DNA of 38,133 nucleotides from Catajapyx aquilonaris (taxonomy: Eukaryota): positions 1-38,133 of the forward strand of contig JYFJ02003758.1 of the NCBI GenBank assembly GCA_000934665.2. The letters run 5' to 3'. The notes below the pieces were generated by a model. It was not told the DNA's origin and searched no databases. It worked only from the letters and a program-made list of their open reading frames with translations. This document shows positions 15,177 to 32,451 of this stretch, piece after piece. The stretch's first letter is position 1. Each line of letters begins with the position of its first letter. Made by a program: the position numbers and the translations under genes.

Positions 15177-17506
15177 ATGTTGCTGGAAGATTCTGCTGGA
15201 GGAGAGATGGTCACTGCTGCCAAGAGGCCCAGGTTGCCCCCACCTGACAAACAGGTACACACTACTCGCGGTATTTTTTTATTTGCAGGTCCCTTTACTT
15301 TGATTACGATCCAAGATGTGGGTTTGAGCTTTTCACGCGTTTGCAAGGTCATTTTTTTGATCTGTATCCAGAAGCAGATACAACATGGGATAACGTCCTT
15401 AGTGACAGAGCCACACAGATCAGGTCATCTGGGTCATCTGCAGTAGTTAGTCTGTCCAAAACATACTTTGTAAGAAGTCAGAGTCAGAGCCTGATTGACA
15501 GGATTTGTCATGTAGCAGGCTGGAAGATAAGGACCACCTGGGGACATGGTACCAAGTACCAGGTGGTTTGGTGGTGGGGAAAAGTGGCTGGTGTCAGCTA
15601 ATCTTATCTGCCTTGGGTTGGCCTTGAGAGCTTGGCTTTGCTTTTGGTGGGAATTAGTGAAAAATCCAACTCGCTCATTTTTGGCACTTTTCTTTAAAAA
15701 AAAAAATGTAAGAACTGTCTTTACTACAAGCTAGTAGGAGCATGTCATGCTATTCCATTATATAACTTTTTCCTCGTATTTCAGGACCATTCATTGCAGA
15801 CCTTTGACATCATCCATCTGTCAAAAGGAGTTGAATATATTGTTGGAGACAGGCTTGGCAAGGGTGGTTTTGGGGAAGTTCTCATGTGCATGAAGGCAGA
15901 CTCCAACTCGGGAAAAGTCAGTCGACATCCAGATGCCATAGCTTTGAAGGTCCAGAGGAAGTCAAGTTCATGGAAGCAAGAGGTATCCATCATGAAGAGG
16001 CTGAAGAAGGGAGGGAGTGGCACGAAGATCCCAAGATTTGCCTGCATGAAAGCAACAGGGGCCGTGGAAGATGATGAGGATGAACATGGAATTGTGAAGA
16101 TGATCGATTACTTCACCGTCCGAGGTCTCCACTGCATTGCCCTTGAGATCATGCCGATGAATCTTTGGATTCTGCTCCAGAAGCAGGACCTGTGCTGTTT
16201 CACCACATCGCAAATCTCTACTGTGGCTAGGCAGTTGCTGATTTCTTTGGATTGGCTGAAGGCTAGTTTGCTTAATTAATTAAACCGATCAGAAGTTCCT
16301 TCTTGTTTTCTGATTTACCAGTGCATTTTCAATGCAAGTGGAACCTGCAGCCTAAATTGTTTGCAATTAAAGTTAAGCAGGTGCAATATTGTCGCCTATG
16401 TTGTACGAGTCTCGCATGTTTGTTTTGAGTTAATTATGCATGTGCGTCAGGAACAGGGTATGTAATGTAATGGTTGAAGAATGCCATATTCAGTAGTTTT
16501 AATGATTAATCTACTTCACAGGAACGGGGTGTGATTCATGCAGATCTGAAGGTGGATAATGTGCTGGTGGATCCACGGACCTGGACTGTCAAGTTGGCTG
16601 ATTTTGGCATGTCCTTTCCCAAGAAATTGGCAGGAAGTCTGCATGGACATTGGTTTCAAACACCTCCATACAGAGCTCCAGAGGTGTATGTTGGTAAGTT
16701 AACTGGTTCAAATTAAGTTCCAGCAAGTGGCTGACCTTTTTCTTTTTCTTCTTCCTCTAGGATTGCCAGTTTCGGAAGCCATTGATGTCTGGTCACTTGG
16801 ATGCATGTGTGCGACCATGTACTTTGGTGTGTGTTGCCCCATGTTTTCACCCCTTGAACGACTCGATGATCTCCTCACTTTGCATCTCATGGTCAACCTC
16901 CTCGGGGAGATGCCCAAAATGAGGTTGCATGAAGGATTGTTCACCCTGAACTACTTTGATTTTGACAGCAAGACCAGGCAGTACGAGCTCAAGGTAAGCT
17001 TGCAAAATACACTCGGATAATTTCAGATTGACGTCACCATTGTTAACATGAATGCATTCGGAAATGCCAGTCTGTAATGTCAACCGTGATTGTTGAAGGG
17101 TTGGGCTGTAATATGAATTCTTTAACCTCTTTAGCAAATTTTGTACAGCGTTGTGAGAGTAGTCAACACAAATAGGACACAATGTCATTTCCTTTGGTTC
17201 TTTGAACAATGTTTTTGACTTACCTGGGTTATTGTTGTCATCCTCAGGAGAAGTCTATCGTTGGCCGGCAAGCAAGGGCAATGCTGGTAGATGGTGGGAT
17301 CTGTGATTTTGGAGAGGTCATGGAGCCTGACTTTGCTGAATTTATGTGGCAGTGCCTTGACATGAACCCGGTAAGAAATGATAATTTGTTGACAAGAGAT
17401 CCCATTAATGACCAGGCTTTGTTTTTTTTTTAAATTTTAGGACACACGTGTTGTACCAAAGGATGCACTGGAGCTGTCCTTTGTGAAGAATATCACATTC
17501 TTATAA
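15177..17506 (+). CDS. K3: HIPK-like Ser/Thr kinase with a non-canonical donor after the large exon
   Basis: Candidate first exon 15177-15254 (MLLEDSAGGEMVTAAKRPRLPPPDKQ; less certain), then 15785-16261, 16522-16693, 16761-16993, 17248-17370, 17441-17506. Motifs GKGGFG, IALK, HADLKVDN, DFG, YRAPE, GLPVSEAIDVWSLGC (close to HIPK GLPFCEAIDMWSLGC). The donor at 16261/16262 reads AAG|GCTAGT. Confidence 0.85.
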
Positions 17507-19312: not shown

Positions 19313-19700
19313 TGTTATGTTGGTAGCATTTGTAATTGTTTCTGTTTCTATTGTTGCAGTTGCCAGGAGAAGAAAACTATTTTGCTATTGGCAGTTGATG
19401 AGTGTAAGCCGTTAGGTGATCTGACACAGTGGTATGTATCTAAGCTTCATTTCCTTGCAAGTTATGTATGAGGAGTTATTTGAGCGTGTCTGCTTCTCTG
19501 TTCAGTATGGGATGTCAAATTTTGCGATAAAATAATGGCTAAGTAGCAAATGACCACAATCGATCTGTTTATTTCATCTGCTATCATCTGGATAATTACT
19601 TCTGAGCAATAATTTAGTTTCACAGAGATGAAGCACATGAGCAGGGAAGAAGTCAAGCGAAGGCTTGCAGATATACAATGTTGGCATATACATAATGCAA
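19313..19700 (+). repeat. Copy 1 of a diverged ~380-bp direct duplication (copy 2 at 22334-22700)
   Basis: Colinear shared blocks TGTTATGTTGGyAGCATTTGTAATTGTT, ATTGTTGCAGTTGCCAGGAGAAGA, GATAAAATAATGGCTAAGTAG, CCACAATCGATCT, CATAATGCAA. Confidence 0.85.
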
Positions 19701-20431
19701 CTGAAAATGAGTTGAATGTTATTGTAGGTCCGAGTCTGTATGCCTTTGAACCCCCCCTTCGCTGTGAAGTTGTGTTAGTTTGATGCAATGTTAGCCATAA
19801 TCAGTCCCCTGGGTTATTTCCACATCACAATCTGCCATGCACATTATGACTCCTTCTCTGCATGGCATACACAGCACATATGTCCTTTGACTGTGTTTGA
19901 AAGTTACTCAAAATAACCTTGAGTTGTTGGTTCATTGGGTGTTAATAATGTGGACCCTATGCTTTTTGGCTGACTCACCAGCTTAATCATGAAGCAATGT
20001 AGGATCAAGAAATGGGGAGAGATCAAATTGAATAGTGGGGGTCTTGGTAGATTTATCCCAAGTTAAATTTTGTGGATACTCGATGTATATTTTACTAACT
20101 GGAGAGTATTGATTTTTGTACATTTAAATCGGAAAAGTTGCGCACAATTTTGCGCACAAGAATAATTTATGTGGAATACTTTTATGCCGCTATCCTCCAC
20201 TGGTTTCCTCCAGCCGTACCAGACCAGCAACCTACTAGTGGACCAGGTTCCAGGTTGGAATAGGTTCCTTTTTCTGGATGCTGCGTAAATGACCACACTC
20301 ATTAGAATTTTTTGTCAGTATGTCACTCATTTTTCCACAGTGTAATGTGGCAACATGGCGAAAAGTAGTACCATTGGACATGAGTCCTTCTCAGACCAGA
20401 TAATTATGGTCGTCTCTTATTCCACAATGAA

Positions 20432-21190
20432 TAGATCAAAAACTTTCCCTTCAGTAAAAAAAAGAGAAGTAAGACCTTCGCGGCGGAATGAAAGTACTGA
20501 AACAAGGCAGGCGCACGTAAGACCTTCACCAATTGATTTAAGCTGTACCATAGGTCTTACTCAAGCAATTCCCAATTCACTGCTCATGAAGTCTCCTTTC
20601 TGAAACAAATTTGTGGAATTTCCGTCCTACTACTAATTACTTCTAACAGCAGTACCAGTGTGCTGCAATTGTACTGCTAAGTTAGCAGTAACTACAGACC
20701 TATAGTTAATAGTAATAGTAGTACGACGAAAATTCTGCCCATTAATTTTCCATGAGCCGCTCCATATTAGTGTTTTATGAAATTAGGAACTTCAATATTA
20801 AGCACATTGAATTTCTATGCGATTAGTGCGAATTATTGCCATGAAACATGCTGATTTTAACTCTAGCGTTTAATTTTTCACATATAAACGTTAATTGGTG
20901 AATTTTAGAGGGTCTTTTTCGATTGGACCGAGTCTGTTTGAATGGGTTTAGTTTTTCCCCAATTTTTTTCTTTTAATAATAAAATCCTACCTATACTGCT
21001 CTGAGTAGTTTGCAGCAGTCATTTTACGAGACGTTCCATACCGTACTTGAGAATTGCTTGAGTAAGACCTATGGTACAGCTTAAATCAATTGGTGAAGGT
21101 CTTACGTGCGCCTGCCTTGTTTCAGTACTTTCATTCCGCCGCGAAGGTCTTACTTCTCTTTTTTTTACTGAAGGGAAAGTTTTTGATCTA
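20432..21190. mobile_element. Non-autonomous DNA element with 140-bp perfect terminal inverted repeats
   Basis: 20432-20571 is the exact reverse complement of 21051-21190 by eye; ORFs 20355+ and 21019- share an identical peptide. GTAAGACCT occurs three times per arm. The TSD can be read as TA or AAT. Confidence 0.9.
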
Positions 21191-22213: not shown

Positions 22214-22333
22214 TTTTGGAAGCTCTACCTATAGCAGAACTTGAGTTAGGGCGAATAAAAAAAACGTAACAACAACAAGAAGAACAAGTAGGAAAAATTC
22301 ATTGTTGAAACATTGTTGAAATCTATGCTACGT

Positions 22334-22700
22334 GTTATGTTGGCAGCATTTGTAATTGTTAGTCTTTTTATTGTTGCAGTTGCCAGGAGAAGAGAGCTGT
22401 TTGGCTATTTGCAGACGTGACTTTTTTGAGCTGTTTGGTGATCTAGTGCTGTGGTAGGATATCTGCTTCATTTGTTTACAAGTTGTTATTTGGGCATGTC
22501 TGCTTCTCTGGTCAGTGTGGGATGTTGAATTTTGGGATAAAATAATGGCTAAGTAGAAAATGGCCACAATCGATCTTTATTTCATCTGCTTTACCCCCTG
22601 GTTCATTACCTTCTGAGCTATAATTATGTTTCACAGGGGAGAAGCATGCGGGCAAGGAAGAAGTCATTGCAGACATGCAATATTGATGTACATAATGCAA
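22334..22700 (+). repeat. Copy 2 of the diverged ~380-bp direct duplication
   Basis: Colinear with 19313-19700. Confidence 0.85.
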
Positions 22701-23081
22701 ATGCAGATTAATCGAATGGTGCAGGCATTGGTTTATGTTATGGGACAATGTAACGTGTAATGTTTTTAAAATGGCAGTAACCAAGAGCTCTTGCAGTAAC
22801 TTATTCAGACCTTGCCTTTTCTCATCATGTGGAGGGGATGGACCTATCAACAAAAAAGTACTTAAACTGTGCATGAGGTGAGGGAATAGACAATCATTTG
22901 TAGGTGTGCTCCCAATTAAGAAGGAAAAATCTGGTTTTGTTGGATCATGCACTGTGAATACTTGCAGTATGTTTGTCATCTGACATTTCCTTTTATACCA
23001 TGTAGTTCCCCTGCGATATTCCAAGCAGAACTTCTGCTTGTTGTGTTGTGAGCGATTATGGCTTCATTACATAGATTATCT

Positions 23082-23847: not shown

Positions 23848-26137
23848 ATGTCATCAAATCCCATGGTAGTATTTGCGCTAATTTTTATGATTATGTTACA
23901 CAGTAGAGTGTAGACTAATAAAATGTCACATGTTTCTCTACAGTTCTTCAGATTGGTGACTGGACAAGTCATCCATAGCAATGGTGGAATCGCTTATAGA
24001 TTGCAGGAACGGCTGCGGCTGGGGCCTGGACGTTTCGGGGAGCGGTTTCAATGTGTGAGGACAGATGCAGGTCAACTGGACCAGAGCATTCCTCACAAGG
24101 TGGCAGTGGTGAAGGTGCCTAAGAACAGGGTGGACTGCTACAGAGAGGCGATAGTCATGCAGCACCTGGCTGAGCCCAACAATCCATTTGATCCCAGGGA
24201 TGGAGATGGGAGGAGTGTGGAGGAGAGGCACCACATTGTCAAGCTGCTGGGCCAGTTCCAGGAAGGTGGTGTCTATGGGTTGGTGATGGAGTCGATGCCC
24301 CTAGACCTCTTGACACTCCTACACAGCCAGCCAGATCTAATGTTCCCCTTACTTGTAGTGTCCAGTGTAGTGAGGCAACTCCTAATTGCGTTAGATTGGC
24401 TGAAGGTAAAGAGCGTTGGGAAAATGTTGTTTTTATTGGTTGATGACAAGATTGCAGTGAGAAACTGTGGATTGACAATAGCCTTGGATACTTTGAACGT
24501 GTTAGCCCTAGGGGAGGATTGTGTAATAAGCCACATGGGTTTTGTTTATTTTTTTAAATAAGTGGTAAAATCTGAAAAGATCCACAATGTACTAAGATCC
24601 TTTACTCACAGGGCGCGAAAAATTAATAGGGTTTGTTAATTTTTTCTAACCTTGTCTGACCCGGTGTTACAATATGTCTCCCGAAAACACTTTCCACCCA
24701 AAGTTGTGCTTTTTTTTGTTTTTGAAAAATGGCTTTCTCATCTTGGGCTAAGTTTTTTCTGATTTGTTTTACCGCAACTTGTAGACAATTAGAAGCACTT
24801 TCAATTGGATTTCAATATTACTAGGGCGAATAAATAACTAATTCACTACTTAAATTCTGTATATAATTTATTAAGTAGGATTGTAAAATAATTCAGTAAT
24901 TAATTGCTTTATTTTCTCTCTAATTGTTATTTGTAGGAAAAGCAGTTTGTCCACACTAAGGTGACAACAGAGAATGTCCTCGCAGCCCTGACTCTGAATG
25001 GAATCAGAGTCAAACTGTCTGACTTTGGCTCGACCATCTACCTTAGCGGAGAGAGGGATGTTGCGCAAGAGATTCAGCGTGAAGAATTCAGTGCGCCTGA
25101 AATTTATCTCGGTAAGAGTGATATGACCATTGCATCAAATTTGCAGATGTTTTGTAAATAATTTGGAGGTCTAATAGGCTCAATGGCACTTATTATTTTC
25201 TCTCAGGGGCGCCATTTAATGAGTCAATTGATATCTGGTCGCTTGGAATCATGGCAGGACAATTGACATTTGGATTAGGCTGTGAGCTGTTTCCACCCAC
25301 GTGCCCATTCAACCCAATACAGGTCTGGTCGAATGTGTTCGGTGGCATTCCCAACAAGGTCCTGGAAGCTGGAGTGTTCACTCGGAAGTACTTTATTCAA
25401 AGTGCAGGTGGAGCATACGATTTGAAGGTACTTACCGAGAAATACAACCCATTTCAATTAATCAACCCAGTGCCAGTGTACCATTGGCCCAACCCGAGTC
25501 GATAATGTCGGGATAAGAATTGTTCAAGGACAGACCAGTAATGATGTTGATGGCAATGATGATGCATTTTATATACAGTACATTGAGAGTAGATTGACTT
25601 AATGTTCTTCTCTCTTTCTCTTTTAGGTTGAGCCTGGTATGGACTTCATCACACACGTCCACTTTGTTCTGAACGATCCGACTACAACTAATAGCGAATT
25701 TAGGGACTTTCTCTTACAATCCCTGCATGTTGACCCTGTAAGTCATTTGTCAGTTCAAGAGATTATGAAGTGTATGAACATAAGTAAGCCTGTTAATGAA
25801 AAATTTGCACACATTTCAAGAAGTAATTTTTGAAGCATATGCTACATACGTACAGTGATATTATTATTGTCTACTGCTGGTCTTATCCATCTTGATCAGA
25901 GATGTCATAACATTTGTTTTTGGTTCCCAGAATCAGTGTCGAAGATCACTAACCTCGATGGATGTTTCCATTGGATCAATTAACATGATGTTGCTATACA
26001 TCTCAAGGCTTCAACATATTTCCAAAGAAAACTAAAGAGGTTCTTGATGTCTCATTTTTCAGGAGAAACGCCTCACCCCAAAAGAAGGCCTGAGGATGGC
26101 ATTTGTGAAGCGATCTTTGATCTCTAATGCATCGTAG
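23848..26137 (+). CDS. K4: HIPK-like pseudokinase (catalytic loop degenerate, ORF intact)
   Basis: Candidate first coding exon 23848-23865 (MSSNPM), then 23944-24405, 24937-25111, 25207-25427, 25627-25737, 26063-26137; all GT-AG and in frame to TAG. GPGRFG, AVVK, DFG, APE and DIWSLG are present, but subdomain VIb reads FVHTKVTTENVL. Confidence 0.88.
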
Positions 26138-27299
26138 AAGATGGATCCTATTTTTGGTTTTGTTTTCAATTTATTAAGTTTTTGTATTCGGATGACAGGC
26201 CTACTTAAAAGTTACTCTCTACTGGAGTAAGAAATAAGAAGACAGACTGGTGATTGATCCAGCCTGAATCCGGCAGCAGAAGAAGGTCAGAGCTAAGCAA
26301 ATATAGTGGGATTGTATGTGTCCCATGTAACTGAGTCCAGTCAAGTGTCCCATCATGAGTCCTTCGGAAGGATGGAACTGGACCAACCTGTAGCAGATTA
26401 ACGAGGCCATCAGGAGTGATACATAGTATTACAGCTTATCTGTAACATTTAACTCCATGGAATTTGGTAGTATGTGGGTGTGTGTGTGAGCAGCACTGAG
26501 GGGAGATTTTGGACACATTGGTGAAGGCTAAGGAGTCATAGATGGGATGGTGGTGGACTGGTGCTAGTGTTGGACTGACATCAACGTAAGGCAACCAGGG
26601 CTGAGAGAAGACTTCCTTGGCCGCCTGCCCATTAACTGAAGTGGTGGTCCTGGAACGTCATCTGTGTGTCAGAAGGAAGGTGATCAGAGATGGTGTCCCT
26701 TCCTTGCTGACCAACGTGAAGGAAAAGGAATAAGGGCAGGAGGTTGTGGATGAGCCATGGATGGACTGGTGGTGTTGTCGACTTGTGATCAATAAGAAGC
26801 AGCCAGAAGTGTGAGAGATGTCTTTTTCAAACCTACCTGTTACGTCATTGGAACTTACGTGAATGGTTTATGAAACTGTTGGCTTGAATATTGAGAACTG
26901 GGAGATATTGTTTAAATGCGTGATGCAAAATTTCATGTTGTGTTGAAATGTCATTACAATTGTTGTGTTCGTGGGAAAATATAATTATGTTGAATGCTAT
27001 GACCCCTGTCGTGGTGTGCTCTATTCTGCTTGCCTTTGCAATATGGACCACGTGCTATTCTCAACAGTAATGGCTAACCACTGGGGACATTTTAATAGGT
27101 ACACCCAGTATTTATACCACATGATTTATCCCTTCTTTACAGCCACCACCTTTAAAATTATTGTTGTGGATAATATTTTTTCATGTAGAGTGTAGAGGAG
27201 ACATTTTCAGCATACCTCGACATCCTGTACACGATACATGACTTCATTATTAGTTCATGCTGTAATATGGCCATATGTCTGTACTTACATCCTACTTAA

Positions 27300-30085: not shown

Positions 30086-32451
30086 TCAGACCTGCTGTCC
30101 AGATTTGACCGATTGCTTGATAAATGGCAACTCCAGGCCGTCCTTCGGAGTCAGGCGCTTCTCCTGTGAAAGATATAAAATATATAGTGAGCCTTAATAT
30201 AGGTATTGCGAAGAGGAGGCCATTATTATTACAAAATCCAGACAGAAATAGTTTGAATATCACATCAACATTAAAATACGGTAATGTAAATAACAGCCTG
30301 TTAATATTAATCAGCAGAATGATTCAAGCCTTTCATGACCTAACTGAAAAGGAAGAAAATGTTTTAAAAATAATTACTTACTGGATCAACAGACAGGCAG
30401 CCGAAGAAGAACTTTTCAAATTCGGGGTCTGGGATGGTAGATGGATGACCTGGCCCGCTCTGAACGGCACGGGCACGGATGCGGAATGTTGAAGGCTCCA
30501 ACTACGAATGAGAAAGAAAAGGAAAATATTAAGAAAATGAATAAGTCCCAGTGGAATAAATGTTAACTGCGAATAAAGTGAGGTGTGGGTTTATATTGTC
30601 ACTTACTTGCAGTGTGTACTCGTCGTCACCAGTCTTGAGGTAGTACTTCTCGGTGTGTTTGCCTGCCTCGAGGACCTTGGTGGGAATGTCTCCGCACACT
30701 CTCGACCAAACCTGAAGCGTGTTGAGTGGGCTGTAGGGTGAGAAAAGCTCGCAGGCAAGGCCATACATCATCTGCCCAGATAGGATGCCAAGGGACCACA
30801 TGTCAATTGCATCGGTGAAAGGTGCACCTGATGAGGAGTAAAATAAGTGTCATTAACATCAGGCCTCATTGGTGCTTGAAATATCACTATATCGTCGGTG
30901 ATCATGCAAAACCTCGTATCTTATTCCATTGGTTTTTGCAGGAGATACGAGGTTTTGCATGATCACCGACGTTACGCTTTTTGGAAGGAAATGTACGGTA
31001 GAAATCAAATTATTGACCATGACACTAATCCTTACCAACATAAATCTCAGGAGCCCTGTGGATGGCGGGTTGAATATTCAGTCCAAAATACAGGTGAGAA
31101 TCGGGACGTATGAAGGTACATCCAAAGTCAGCCAGCTTCACTCTCACTTCATTATTTGGCCTCATGTCGATGAGGACATTCTCTGGCTTAATGTCAGCGT
31201 GAATCAACTCTTTTGTCTGAAAATAAAAGTATATCAATGAATACGGATGTGCAGAAAAGAGACTGTGGTCTACCATGACAAAATAAAATCATATCAATCA
31301 TGCCGCTAAAACCTTTATAAGCGACCTAATGCATCATGCTTACCTTGAGCCAATCAAGTGCCGTCAGGAGCTGCCTGGCCACGCTGGAGACCATCACAGG
31401 GGGCAGTCTGTGTTGGAGGTGGACGGAAAGGAGTTTCAGGAGGTCTCCCTGCATATACTCCATCATCAGGCAGAAGAGGTTGGCGTGTTGGAAGAAGCCC
31501 AGAAACTTTGAAATGTTGTGTCTGTCCTCCTCCCCATCACCTTCAGTCGATGCAGAGGGTTGGTCTGCTGTGCTCCCAGGAGACTGATGGATGGGCAGTG
31601 CCAGAAACTTCATGATGGCCCCCTCCCTAGTGGCTGACACCGGGTCTCTCTGCACCTTGACTACTGCTCTCTTGTGAGACACGCTCTCGTCCAGTTGGTC
31701 AGCATCTTTTCTCACGCACCTAAACACCTCCCCGAAGCAGCCTGCTCCCATCCGTACCTCCAAGGTGTAGTCGATTCCACCATTGCCTCGGATCACCTGT
31801 CCAGCAACCAATCCGCTTCTGAAGAGCTGCAATAAAAATTATTTACAAATTATTCTCCAAAAAATCGAGAGGGTAAACGCCACAATTGAACTGAAGTTGG
31901 CCTACCCCCCCTTTTTAATTTGACTTTTTTAAAAAAATATGAGTGAGGGTAGGCCCTATATCGACTATCACATCCCCCGTTTAATAGCTTGCAAAATCAC
32001 AGACGAAATTTTGAAATTGCATTAATTTTTCGGGCCTACTGGGTTCCAAACGAAATTAGCATGTAAATAATAATGGTTAAATACGTTGCACATGGAAATT
32101 ACGATATGTTATACCAATCGCCGAGACTTTTTAAAAAACCATTTGTTTCCTGCATAAATTACAAGCACCACGAAATATCCGCACAATCAGTTCTAACAAA
32201 ATTACAAAACGGCATGGCATGGCTCACATACGTATAGCATATACATATCGTAATATTCTGGACTGGCTGAAATGAGAATAGACAATATTCACAGCATTTA
32301 CATTATTTTGGATAAAATTAATGGTCTGCGCAATGAATTATGTATACGTACATACTCGTATGATTCTACACGTAGCCCGTAAATAAAAATATGCACAATT
32401 TCTGCCGAAAAAATGGCGACCAACCTGAGGGGCCTGCTGCTGAGACGCCAT
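30086..32451 (-). CDS. K5: HIPK-like Ser/Thr kinase, closest paralogue of K4
   Basis: Candidate first coding exon 32451-32425 (MASQQQAPQ; alternative 32687-32646 MSSSLGGGQVKSVE), then 31826-31344, 31216-31036, 30827-30607, 30501-30382, 30163-30086. Motifs GAGCFG, AVVK, IHADIKPENVL, DFG, RAPE, AIDMWSLG. Confidence 0.9.
30893..30971. repeat. Perfect 29-bp-arm hairpin inside a K5 intron
   Basis: CGTCGGTGATCATGCAAAACCTCGTATCT, 21-nt loop, AGATACGAGGTTTTGCATGATCACCGACG. Confidence 0.92.

Follow-up and report, generated by a model that had tools for sequence, protein, structure and literature searches.

A candidate pseudokinase gene with an intact reading frame in a tandem array of HIPK-like kinase genes of Catajapyx aquilonaris

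Pseudokinases of the ROP5, STRAD, HER3 and KSR type work by pairing or by competition. Loss of catalytic residues is already common in expanded kinase families, and the case described here is not new in kind: in the extracts from which this and all other sources are cited here, about 10% of the human kinases are counted as pseudokinases and 71% of the Giardia NEKs are classed as such (PMC4718504, 10.1101/168187), STRAD, HER3 and ROPK being among the examples named in the review (PMC4718504). The ROPK pseudokinases of Toxoplasma (ROP5 and others) arose in an expanded, fast-evolving family and act on or together with active paralogues (PMC3682881), and their HRD motif has changed to HGX, with X often being basic (PMC4718504). 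PSKH2, with an HRN motif, has been presented as a model of a recent transition from kinase to pseudokinase through loss of the HRD aspartate alone (PMC7586955). In human MLKL, HGK replaces HRD such that a lysine occupies the position of the catalytic aspartate, and the pseudokinase domain serves as a conformational switch, not as an enzyme (PMC6013482, PMC4718504). For the DYRK family, one of 142 Stentor members was predicted to be a pseudokinase in a kinome study, which argued that DYRK active sites are kept intact by self-activation (10.1101/168187); no description of a pseudokinase of the HIPK/DYRK family was found in titles and abstracts of the open-access literature that we searched. Here we describe such a candidate. 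The gene, K4, is located on contig JYFJ02003758.1 of Catajapyx aquilonaris (assembly GCA_000934665.2), a stretch of 38,133 nucleotides (nt) that was analysed over its full length and is referred to as the window. Based on its sequence we regard K4, with a probability of roughly 0.55, as a non-catalytic pseudokinase maintained by selection within a lineage-specific array of HIPK-like kinases (DYRK family, CMGC group). Part of its interest lies in its occurrence within the HIPK/DYRK family.

The DNA of the window is eukaryotic, and its introns are short and of the GT..AG type. Six related kinase genes were detected in it by tblastn with the K4 model, namely K4 and five paralogues designated P1, P2, P3, P5 and P6, and all six gene models consist of five exons with common intron positions and phases and with open joined frames. 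K4 extends from 23923 to 26137 on the plus strand and comprises 355 codons when counted from the ATG at 23923. Its first exon (23923..24405) covers the region from the N-terminal lobe (N-lobe) to helix alphaE, has ...LDWLK as its last residues and ends in the donor AAG/GTAAAG. Exon 2 (24937..25111), which is preceded by AG, followed by GT and ends in phase 1, encodes the catalytic loop, DFG, the activation segment and APE; its in-frame translation is EKQFVHTKVTTENVLAALTLNGIRVKLSDFGSTIYLSGERDVAQEIQREEFSAPEIYL. Exon 3 (25207..25427) contains the end of the P+1 region and helix alphaF (DIWSLG) and continues to alphaG; with 55% identity to P5 it is the best-conserved part of K4. Exon 4 (25627..25737) ends with the residues ...SLHVDP, and exon 5 (26063..26137) encodes EKRLTPKEGLRMAFVKRSLISNAS, including the arginine of subdomain XI, followed by the stop codon. 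All eight ends of the four introns are GT or AG, and the frame is interrupted by neither a stop codon nor a frameshift. The preservation of splice sites and reading frame asserted in the preliminary description of this DNA is therefore borne out, although one donor is weak (see below). The ATG at 23923 is preceded by an in-frame stop codon, and an acceptor-like AG at 23942-23943 would permit alternative splice-in at 23944; an upstream exon conserved among the six paralogues was not detected by tblastx and blastn in the 2.4-3 kb upstream. A canonical alternative exon 2 within the 531-nt intron 1 was considered as well and rejected after a motif scan of this intron had found none.

A six-frame motif scan of the window identified six catalytic loops along with six DFG motifs at matching positions and six APE motifs. 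Five of the loops read HADxKxxN, and K4 is the sole deviant with HTKVTTEN (24952..24975; His167-Asn174). In this loop, Lys169 (codon AAG, 24958-24960) stands in place of the catalytic aspartate and Thr171 (codon ACA, 24964-24966) in place of the catalytic-loop lysine. Further replacements concern the arginine before APE, which is present in all five other paralogues and is Ser213 in K4 (codon AGT, 25090..25092), and the beta2 position after GxGxxG, which is occupied by Arg41 (codon CGG, 24043..24045; GTG in P5). At the residue before DFG, K4 has serine in place of alanine. Retained in K4 are the glycines of the Gly loop, histidine and asparagine of the catalytic loop, DFG, APE, the DxWSxG motif of alphaF and the subdomain XI arginine, and the columns of the beta3 lysine and the alphaC glutamate are invariant in all six genes. 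The four replacements listed first had been noted in the preliminary description, as had the conservation of the beta3 lysine, alphaC glutamate, loop asparagine, DFG and APE, and all of this was seen again in the paralogue alignment and the motif scan; the norm at the beta2 position had been given as valine, which applies to four of the other five paralogues, P1 having alanine. At the sequence level, pseudokinases are recognized by the absence of the VAIK lysine, the HRD aspartate or the DFG aspartate, and of these three residues it is the aspartate of HxD that is gone from K4. The loss of catalytic residues is real, and we infer from it that K4 would be incapable of conventional phosphotransfer.

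Could the HTK loop stem from an assembly or sequencing error, or from a rare allele carried by a single individual, with the true gene encoding a normal kinase? We consider this hardly credible. Logan contigs of three runs, which were assembled independently, agree over positions 23900-26200 at a depth of 22-36 and show zero differences in the catalytic loop (24952-24975). Restoration of HADxK by raw reads had been named beforehand as an outcome that would overturn the pseudokinase assignment; the contigs of all three runs keep HTK. Moreover, conversion of HTKVT to HAD..K requires five nucleotide changes, too many to be explained by error, and the deviations at Arg41 and Ser213 are located elsewhere in the gene. 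What speaks for an artefact is that the DNA support comes entirely from one sample, which is possibly the source of the assembly itself. One of the three runs differs from the window at two positions of exon 2, 25042 (C>G, Leu197Val) and 25065 (G>A, synonymous in Ala204), which probably stem from the other allele of the individual that was sequenced.

Selection on K4 was analysed with a codon branch model (own GY94+F3x4 code, fixed six-taxon tree, K4 as foreground) whose one-ratio fit coincided with that of iqtree2 (log-likelihood -6533.99 versus -6534.00, identical branch lengths). NG86 estimates of the synonymous substitutions per site (dS) were saturated in 14 of 15 pairs (not computable or >2), leaving the pair of K4 and P5 and the likelihood model as usable. 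P5 is the sister of K4 within the window (49% amino-acid identity, bootstrap 100), with NG86 values of 0.41 for the nonsynonymous substitutions per site (dN) and 1.23 for dS. When exon 2 was left out (266 codons), the dN/dS ratio (omega) of K4 was 0.196 as compared to 0.138 in the background (p=0.52 versus background, p=0.013 versus 1), with an upper bound of about 0.6 (95%, profile likelihood). For exon 1 (139 codons) the two values were 0.055 and 0.052 (p=0.96 versus background, p=0.004 versus 1) and for exon 3 (74 codons) 0.11 and 0.147 (p=0.71 and p=0.044, respectively). By contrast, omega of K4 amounted to 1.9-2.2 in exon 2 (56 codons; lower bound about 0.31), where the background was 0.13-0.14 (p=0.003-0.007 versus background, p=0.56-0.62 versus 1). 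A Tajima-type count of lineage-specific replacements in K4 and P5 gave 8:0 in exon 2 (p=0.008), 20:13 elsewhere (no pooled p) and 28:13 in total (p=0.028). Likewise, of the sites invariant in the other five genes K4 keeps 37 of 42 outside exon 2, similar to catalytic paralogues, and 12 of 19 inside (Fisher p=0.036), so that seven of its 12 losses at such sites fall into exon 2. Import of exon 2 from a more distant copy was also examined as an origin and rejected since its dS to P5 is 0.80, as compared to 0.98-2.6 for the other exons.

These values suggest that, outside exon 2, K4 is under purifying selection as are its catalytic paralogues (omega 0.20), and that exon 2 has been released or remodelled. 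The omega above 1 of exon 2 could be adaptive; statistically it is indistinct from neutral release. The preliminary description had proposed that K4 is retained in a non-catalytic role. This proposal holds in so far as the catalytic residues are gone, the frame, splice dinucleotides and motifs are intact and omega is low outside exon 2, but for the gene taken as a whole the test falls short of significance. If a signature of this kind, with the catalytic exon released and the rest constrained, can be generalized, it could help to separate pseudokinases from pseudogenes without recourse to expression data.

An alternative explanation is that K4 has become non-functional and is decaying, either slowly or since recently: selection would have lapsed once catalysis was lost, or after an intermediate period as a pseudokinase, and the frame would be open merely for want of time. 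We consider this rather unlikely, but it accounts for a number of observations that weigh against maintenance of K4 by selection. The whole-gene test (322 codons) is borderline: omega was 0.34 for K4 and 0.148 for the background (p=0.06 versus background, p=0.055 versus 1). In exons 4 and 5 together (53 codons), K4 had an omega of 0.95 that is indistinct both from 1 (p=0.97) and from the background of 0.21 (p=0.19), so that this partition carries little information. The amino-acid branch of K4 is twice that of P5 (0.87 versus 0.43), radical losses have occurred at family-invariant sites, and with 49 of 61 such sites K4 keeps the fewest of all six genes (84-92% in the others, leave-one-out). 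Matches to the Pfam kinase family (PF00069) are also weakest in K4, with 21.5 bits for exon 2 (E 1.7e-4; 31.0-41.4 bits in the other genes) and 16.6 bits for exon 1 (E 5.4e-3; 25.3-35.9 bits in the others). The exon-3 donor, AAG/GTACTT, is off consensus at +4 and +5, and one of the two allelic differences is non-synonymous.

Further cautions pertain to the tests and the gene model. The exon-2 partition is post hoc, chosen because the finding sits there, and in a control with P5 as foreground exon 2 yielded a non-significant omega of 2.5 (p=0.105), which indicates that small partitions are unstable. Synonymous sites are near saturation, with a dS of about 1.2 between K4 and P5 and inestimable values for most other pairs. 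All comparators of K4 are paralogues, one copy outside the window being possibly closer to it than P5, and an orthologue was not found in word-indexed library searches with K4 exon 1. Finally, neither AATAAA nor ATTAAA occurs within 800 nt of the K4 stop codon; the same holds for P6.

Arguments against decay come from the low omega outside exon 2 with its upper bound, from the invariant sites kept there, from the intact frame and intron ends, and from a consideration of time. The replacements of aspartate by lysine, lysine by threonine and valine by arginine took two nucleotide changes apiece; in all five paralogues the aspartate codon is GAC or GAT and the loop lysine codon AAG, and both K4 codons are two nucleotides away. 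Because two changes are required per codon and the first step away from the catalytic aspartate is already inactivating, at least one further replacement would have followed, which implies a long time since catalysis ended, far longer than a frame free of selection would be expected to last. Loss of the HRD aspartate alone is exemplified by the HRN motif (PSKH2; PMC7586955). For a K4 frame evolving neutrally, 36.3 nonsense substitutions are expected per substitution per site, and the probability that the 1,041-nt frame stays open is 16% at a distance (d) of 0.05, 2.7% at d=0.1 and 0.07% at d=0.2, indels and losses of splice sites not counted. Taken together with an omega of about 0.2 outside exon 2, the time argument favours a gene that was held open by selection after catalysis had been lost. 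A very recent lapse of selection at the end of a long life as a pseudokinase would likewise be compatible with the K4 data.

If selection indeed maintains K4 as a folded, kinase-like protein, this protein would act by binding and not by catalysis. The exon for the N-lobe and the one for the alphaF-alphaG region appear to change at the same slow pace as their counterparts in the catalytic paralogues, and release or remodelling seems to be confined to the exon for the catalytic loop and activation segment. Surfaces for docking and dimer formation are found in the N-lobe and the alphaF-alphaG region of kinases generally. As the constrained exons coincide with these regions, pairing or competition with active paralogues is the most economical explanation. 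The likeliest mode of action would thus be that of a partner or competitor of the active neighbours, with K4 either engaging in allosteric pairing or occupying their substrates or docking partners. The resemblance to ROPKs and PSKH2 has its limits, since these proteins belong to other kinase groups and organisms and a partnership of K4 with its neighbours is our proposal. Given the proximity of K4 and P5 in a compact array, the pair would provide a natural system in which to study how a fresh pseudokinase affects, or works with, its parent kinase.

Based on its position, Lys169 may contact nucleotide phosphates or pair with Asp190 of DFG, as does the corresponding lysine in human MLKL. MLKL is a TKL-like protein from an unrelated kinase group, and its likeness to K4 is convergent, one of mechanism only and not of membership; unlike K4, which retains DFG, it has GFE at this site and carries an N-terminal killer domain. 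Lys331 of MLKL contributes to cation-independent ATP binding (PMC4718504). With MLKL and the ROPKs, basic residues at the aspartate position are seen repeatedly among functional pseudokinases. As to the base of the nucleotide, the canonical beta2 spine residue is valine, alanine or glycine in the motif table of a review (PMC7586955), and the presence of Arg41 at this position renders a canonical adenine pocket, and with it canonical adenine binding by K4, doubtful. For the suggestion in the preliminary description that K4 possibly still binds nucleotide, the MLKL precedent thus speaks in favour and Arg41 against. It is tempting to speculate that, in a family (DYRK/HIPK) in which pseudokinases are apparently rare, the activation segment and catalytic loop of K4 were not merely released but adaptively remodelled into an H-x-Lys pseudoactive site like that of MLKL. 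With this surface K4 would bind the neighbouring active kinases, or the evolutionary driver of the array, or act as a switch toward them. This more specific proposal is tentative.

The same residues bear on the question of whether K4 might still be an enzyme, with weak or non-canonical phosphotransfer or some other nucleotide-dependent activity. Such a function appears improbable. The beta3 lysine, alphaC glutamate, loop asparagine and DFG aspartate, all of which bind nucleotide or metal, have been kept, and WNK, PRPK and haspin were once called pseudokinases and later found active, JH2 of JAK2 being of low activity (PMC4718504). However, no acidic residue compensates for the missing aspartate: Glu173 is the only one in the K4 loop, and it is also found in catalytic P5. 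In addition, four catalytic or spine positions are altered together, among them the beta2 residue, which usually packs against adenine and is arginine in K4. A preserved active site would also not be expected to evolve at the neutral rate or faster, as exon 2 does. A non-catalytic role in binding remains our preferred explanation for K4.

The preliminary description had placed K4 in the CMGC group. This is correct and can be refined to HIPK-like based on profile matches. A profile of the six exon-1 peptides, compared with 177,635 PDB sequences, matched HIPK3 first (7o7i, E 8.5e-11) and HIPK2 next, and for a profile of the six exon-2 peptides HIPK2 was the best match (7ncf, E 2.9e-12), with HADLKxxN, LVDP, DFG and RAPE aligning column by column. 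HIPK3 and HIPK2 rank ahead of DYRK2, SRPK and CLK for the array profiles, a likeness that pertains to the entire array; when K4 exon 1 was searched by itself, no match was obtained in PDB. That single exons of K4 score below the Pfam gathering threshold of 31.7 bits is due to introns splitting the domain, and the kinase homology of K4 is clear via its paralogues and the matches to HIPK2 and HIPK3.

With the HIPK2 and HIPK3 domains (7ncf, 6p5s, 7o7i) the five catalytic paralogues share a HADLKPEN-type loop, in which alanine replaces the usual arginine, as well as LVDP after the loop, DFG and a P+1 segment of the xQxxxYRAPE type. K4 differs from these domains in lacking the aspartate and lysine of the HxDxKxxN loop, which the other five genes possess, and the arginine before APE, and all six genes lack the activation-loop tyrosine. 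The residue aligned to this tyrosine of HIPK2 (STY before LQ) is E, N, D, L, W or N in the array, tyrosine being found in none of the six genes (positions 25075-25080 in the case of K4). Canonical HIPKs have long C-terminal regions. Such regions are not seen in the window proteins, which are about 350 residues long and consist of the kinase domain only.

When 1.84 billion representatives were scanned in full by HMMER with the six-exon-1 profile, 115 proteins were returned at E<=1e-10. They are only distant relatives, the best one (E 7e-42) being a three-domain fish protein, and the array proteins are merely 27-34% identical to library proteins. A FastTree phylogeny built from 76 domains placed the six window genes in a single clade on a long branch, next to a teleost group. 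From this separate clade and the low identity we conclude that a divergent HIPK-like kinase has undergone lineage-specific expansion in the array.

The teleost HIPK-like genes (XP_031135279.1, XP_028437173.1, XP_054596643.2) are the nearest library relatives according to both profile search and tree. Similar to the window array they are arranged in tandem, as is apparent from gene models in which several domains are fused. The activation-loop tyrosine is missing from them too, and their loops are occasionally degenerate (HSN, HSY, HGN). Since this tyrosine is absent from the array and from the teleost relatives examined, regulation of the whole group must differ from that of canonical HIPK and DYRK kinases. 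The array belongs to an uncharacterised HIPK-like gene group that evolves fast. Of 204 related kinase domains in which the loop was complete, 187 were canonical and 17 non-canonical, with six of the latter lacking the aspartate. None of the 204 has lysine at this position, and in this K4 is unlike the teleost domains, from which the window genes are further set apart by their own long-branched clade. Degenerate domains in tandem models of teleost and other HIPK-like genes include HSYVKHDN with INFG, HSNLNHDN, and HGNIMPEN with AGFE, and they indicate that loss of catalytic residues is recurrent in such arrays. Expansion of the HIPK family is the subject of a single passing mention in the extract of one source (PMC7729161), and titles and abstracts of the open-access literature searched contained no description of a function for the fish arrays.

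The five paralogues of K4 are all canonical in their catalytic loops. P1 (2698..4952, HADLKLDN) and P2 (9621..11054, HADIKLHN) are located on the minus strand, P3 (15794..17506, HADLKVDN) on the plus strand upstream of K4, P5 (30086..31832, HADIKPEN) on the minus strand and hence convergent with K4, and P6 (34224..35561, HADLKLDN) on the plus strand. Two head-to-head pairs share their upstream regions, which measure 4.7 kb for P2 and P3 (11055-15793) and 2.4 kb for P5 and P6 (31833-34223). Intron 1 of P3 starts with GC (AAG/GCTAGT, 16262-16263), in contrast to the 23 other donors of the array, which are GT; P3 being canonical and open in other respects, the GC marks either an intron of the GC-AG type or a defect in splicing. 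The beginning of K4 exon 1 (23951-24015) is an inverted repeat of the beginning of P5 exon 1 (31749-31813), with 77% identity. In the same sample, K4 exon 1 is matched at 24063-24110 and 24394-24413 (about 90-100%) by contigs of 3.7-5.1 kb that then depart from the window sequence. These contigs indicate a paralogue outside the window that differs in sequence from P5 and is possibly a nearer relative of K4 than P5.

Nine long non-kinase open reading frames of the window were without a Pfam family above threshold, and tRNA genes were not found in the window. The 6.4-kb spacer upstream of K4 contains a 144-nt inverted repeat (20432-20575 and 21047-21190) whose arms are 99% complementary and 471 nt apart, resembling a foldback element or a miniature inverted-repeat transposable element. 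Also upstream of K4, two direct copies (19313-19566 and 22333-22576) lie about 3.0 kb apart and comprise repeats of 82 and 105 nt with 86-88% identity; they overlap with minus-strand open reading frames (19462-19800 and 22512-23063) for which no Pfam match was obtained. Near the start of the window, positions 1432-1603 are occupied by a tandem array of 8.7 copies of a 20-nt unit with 92% matches.

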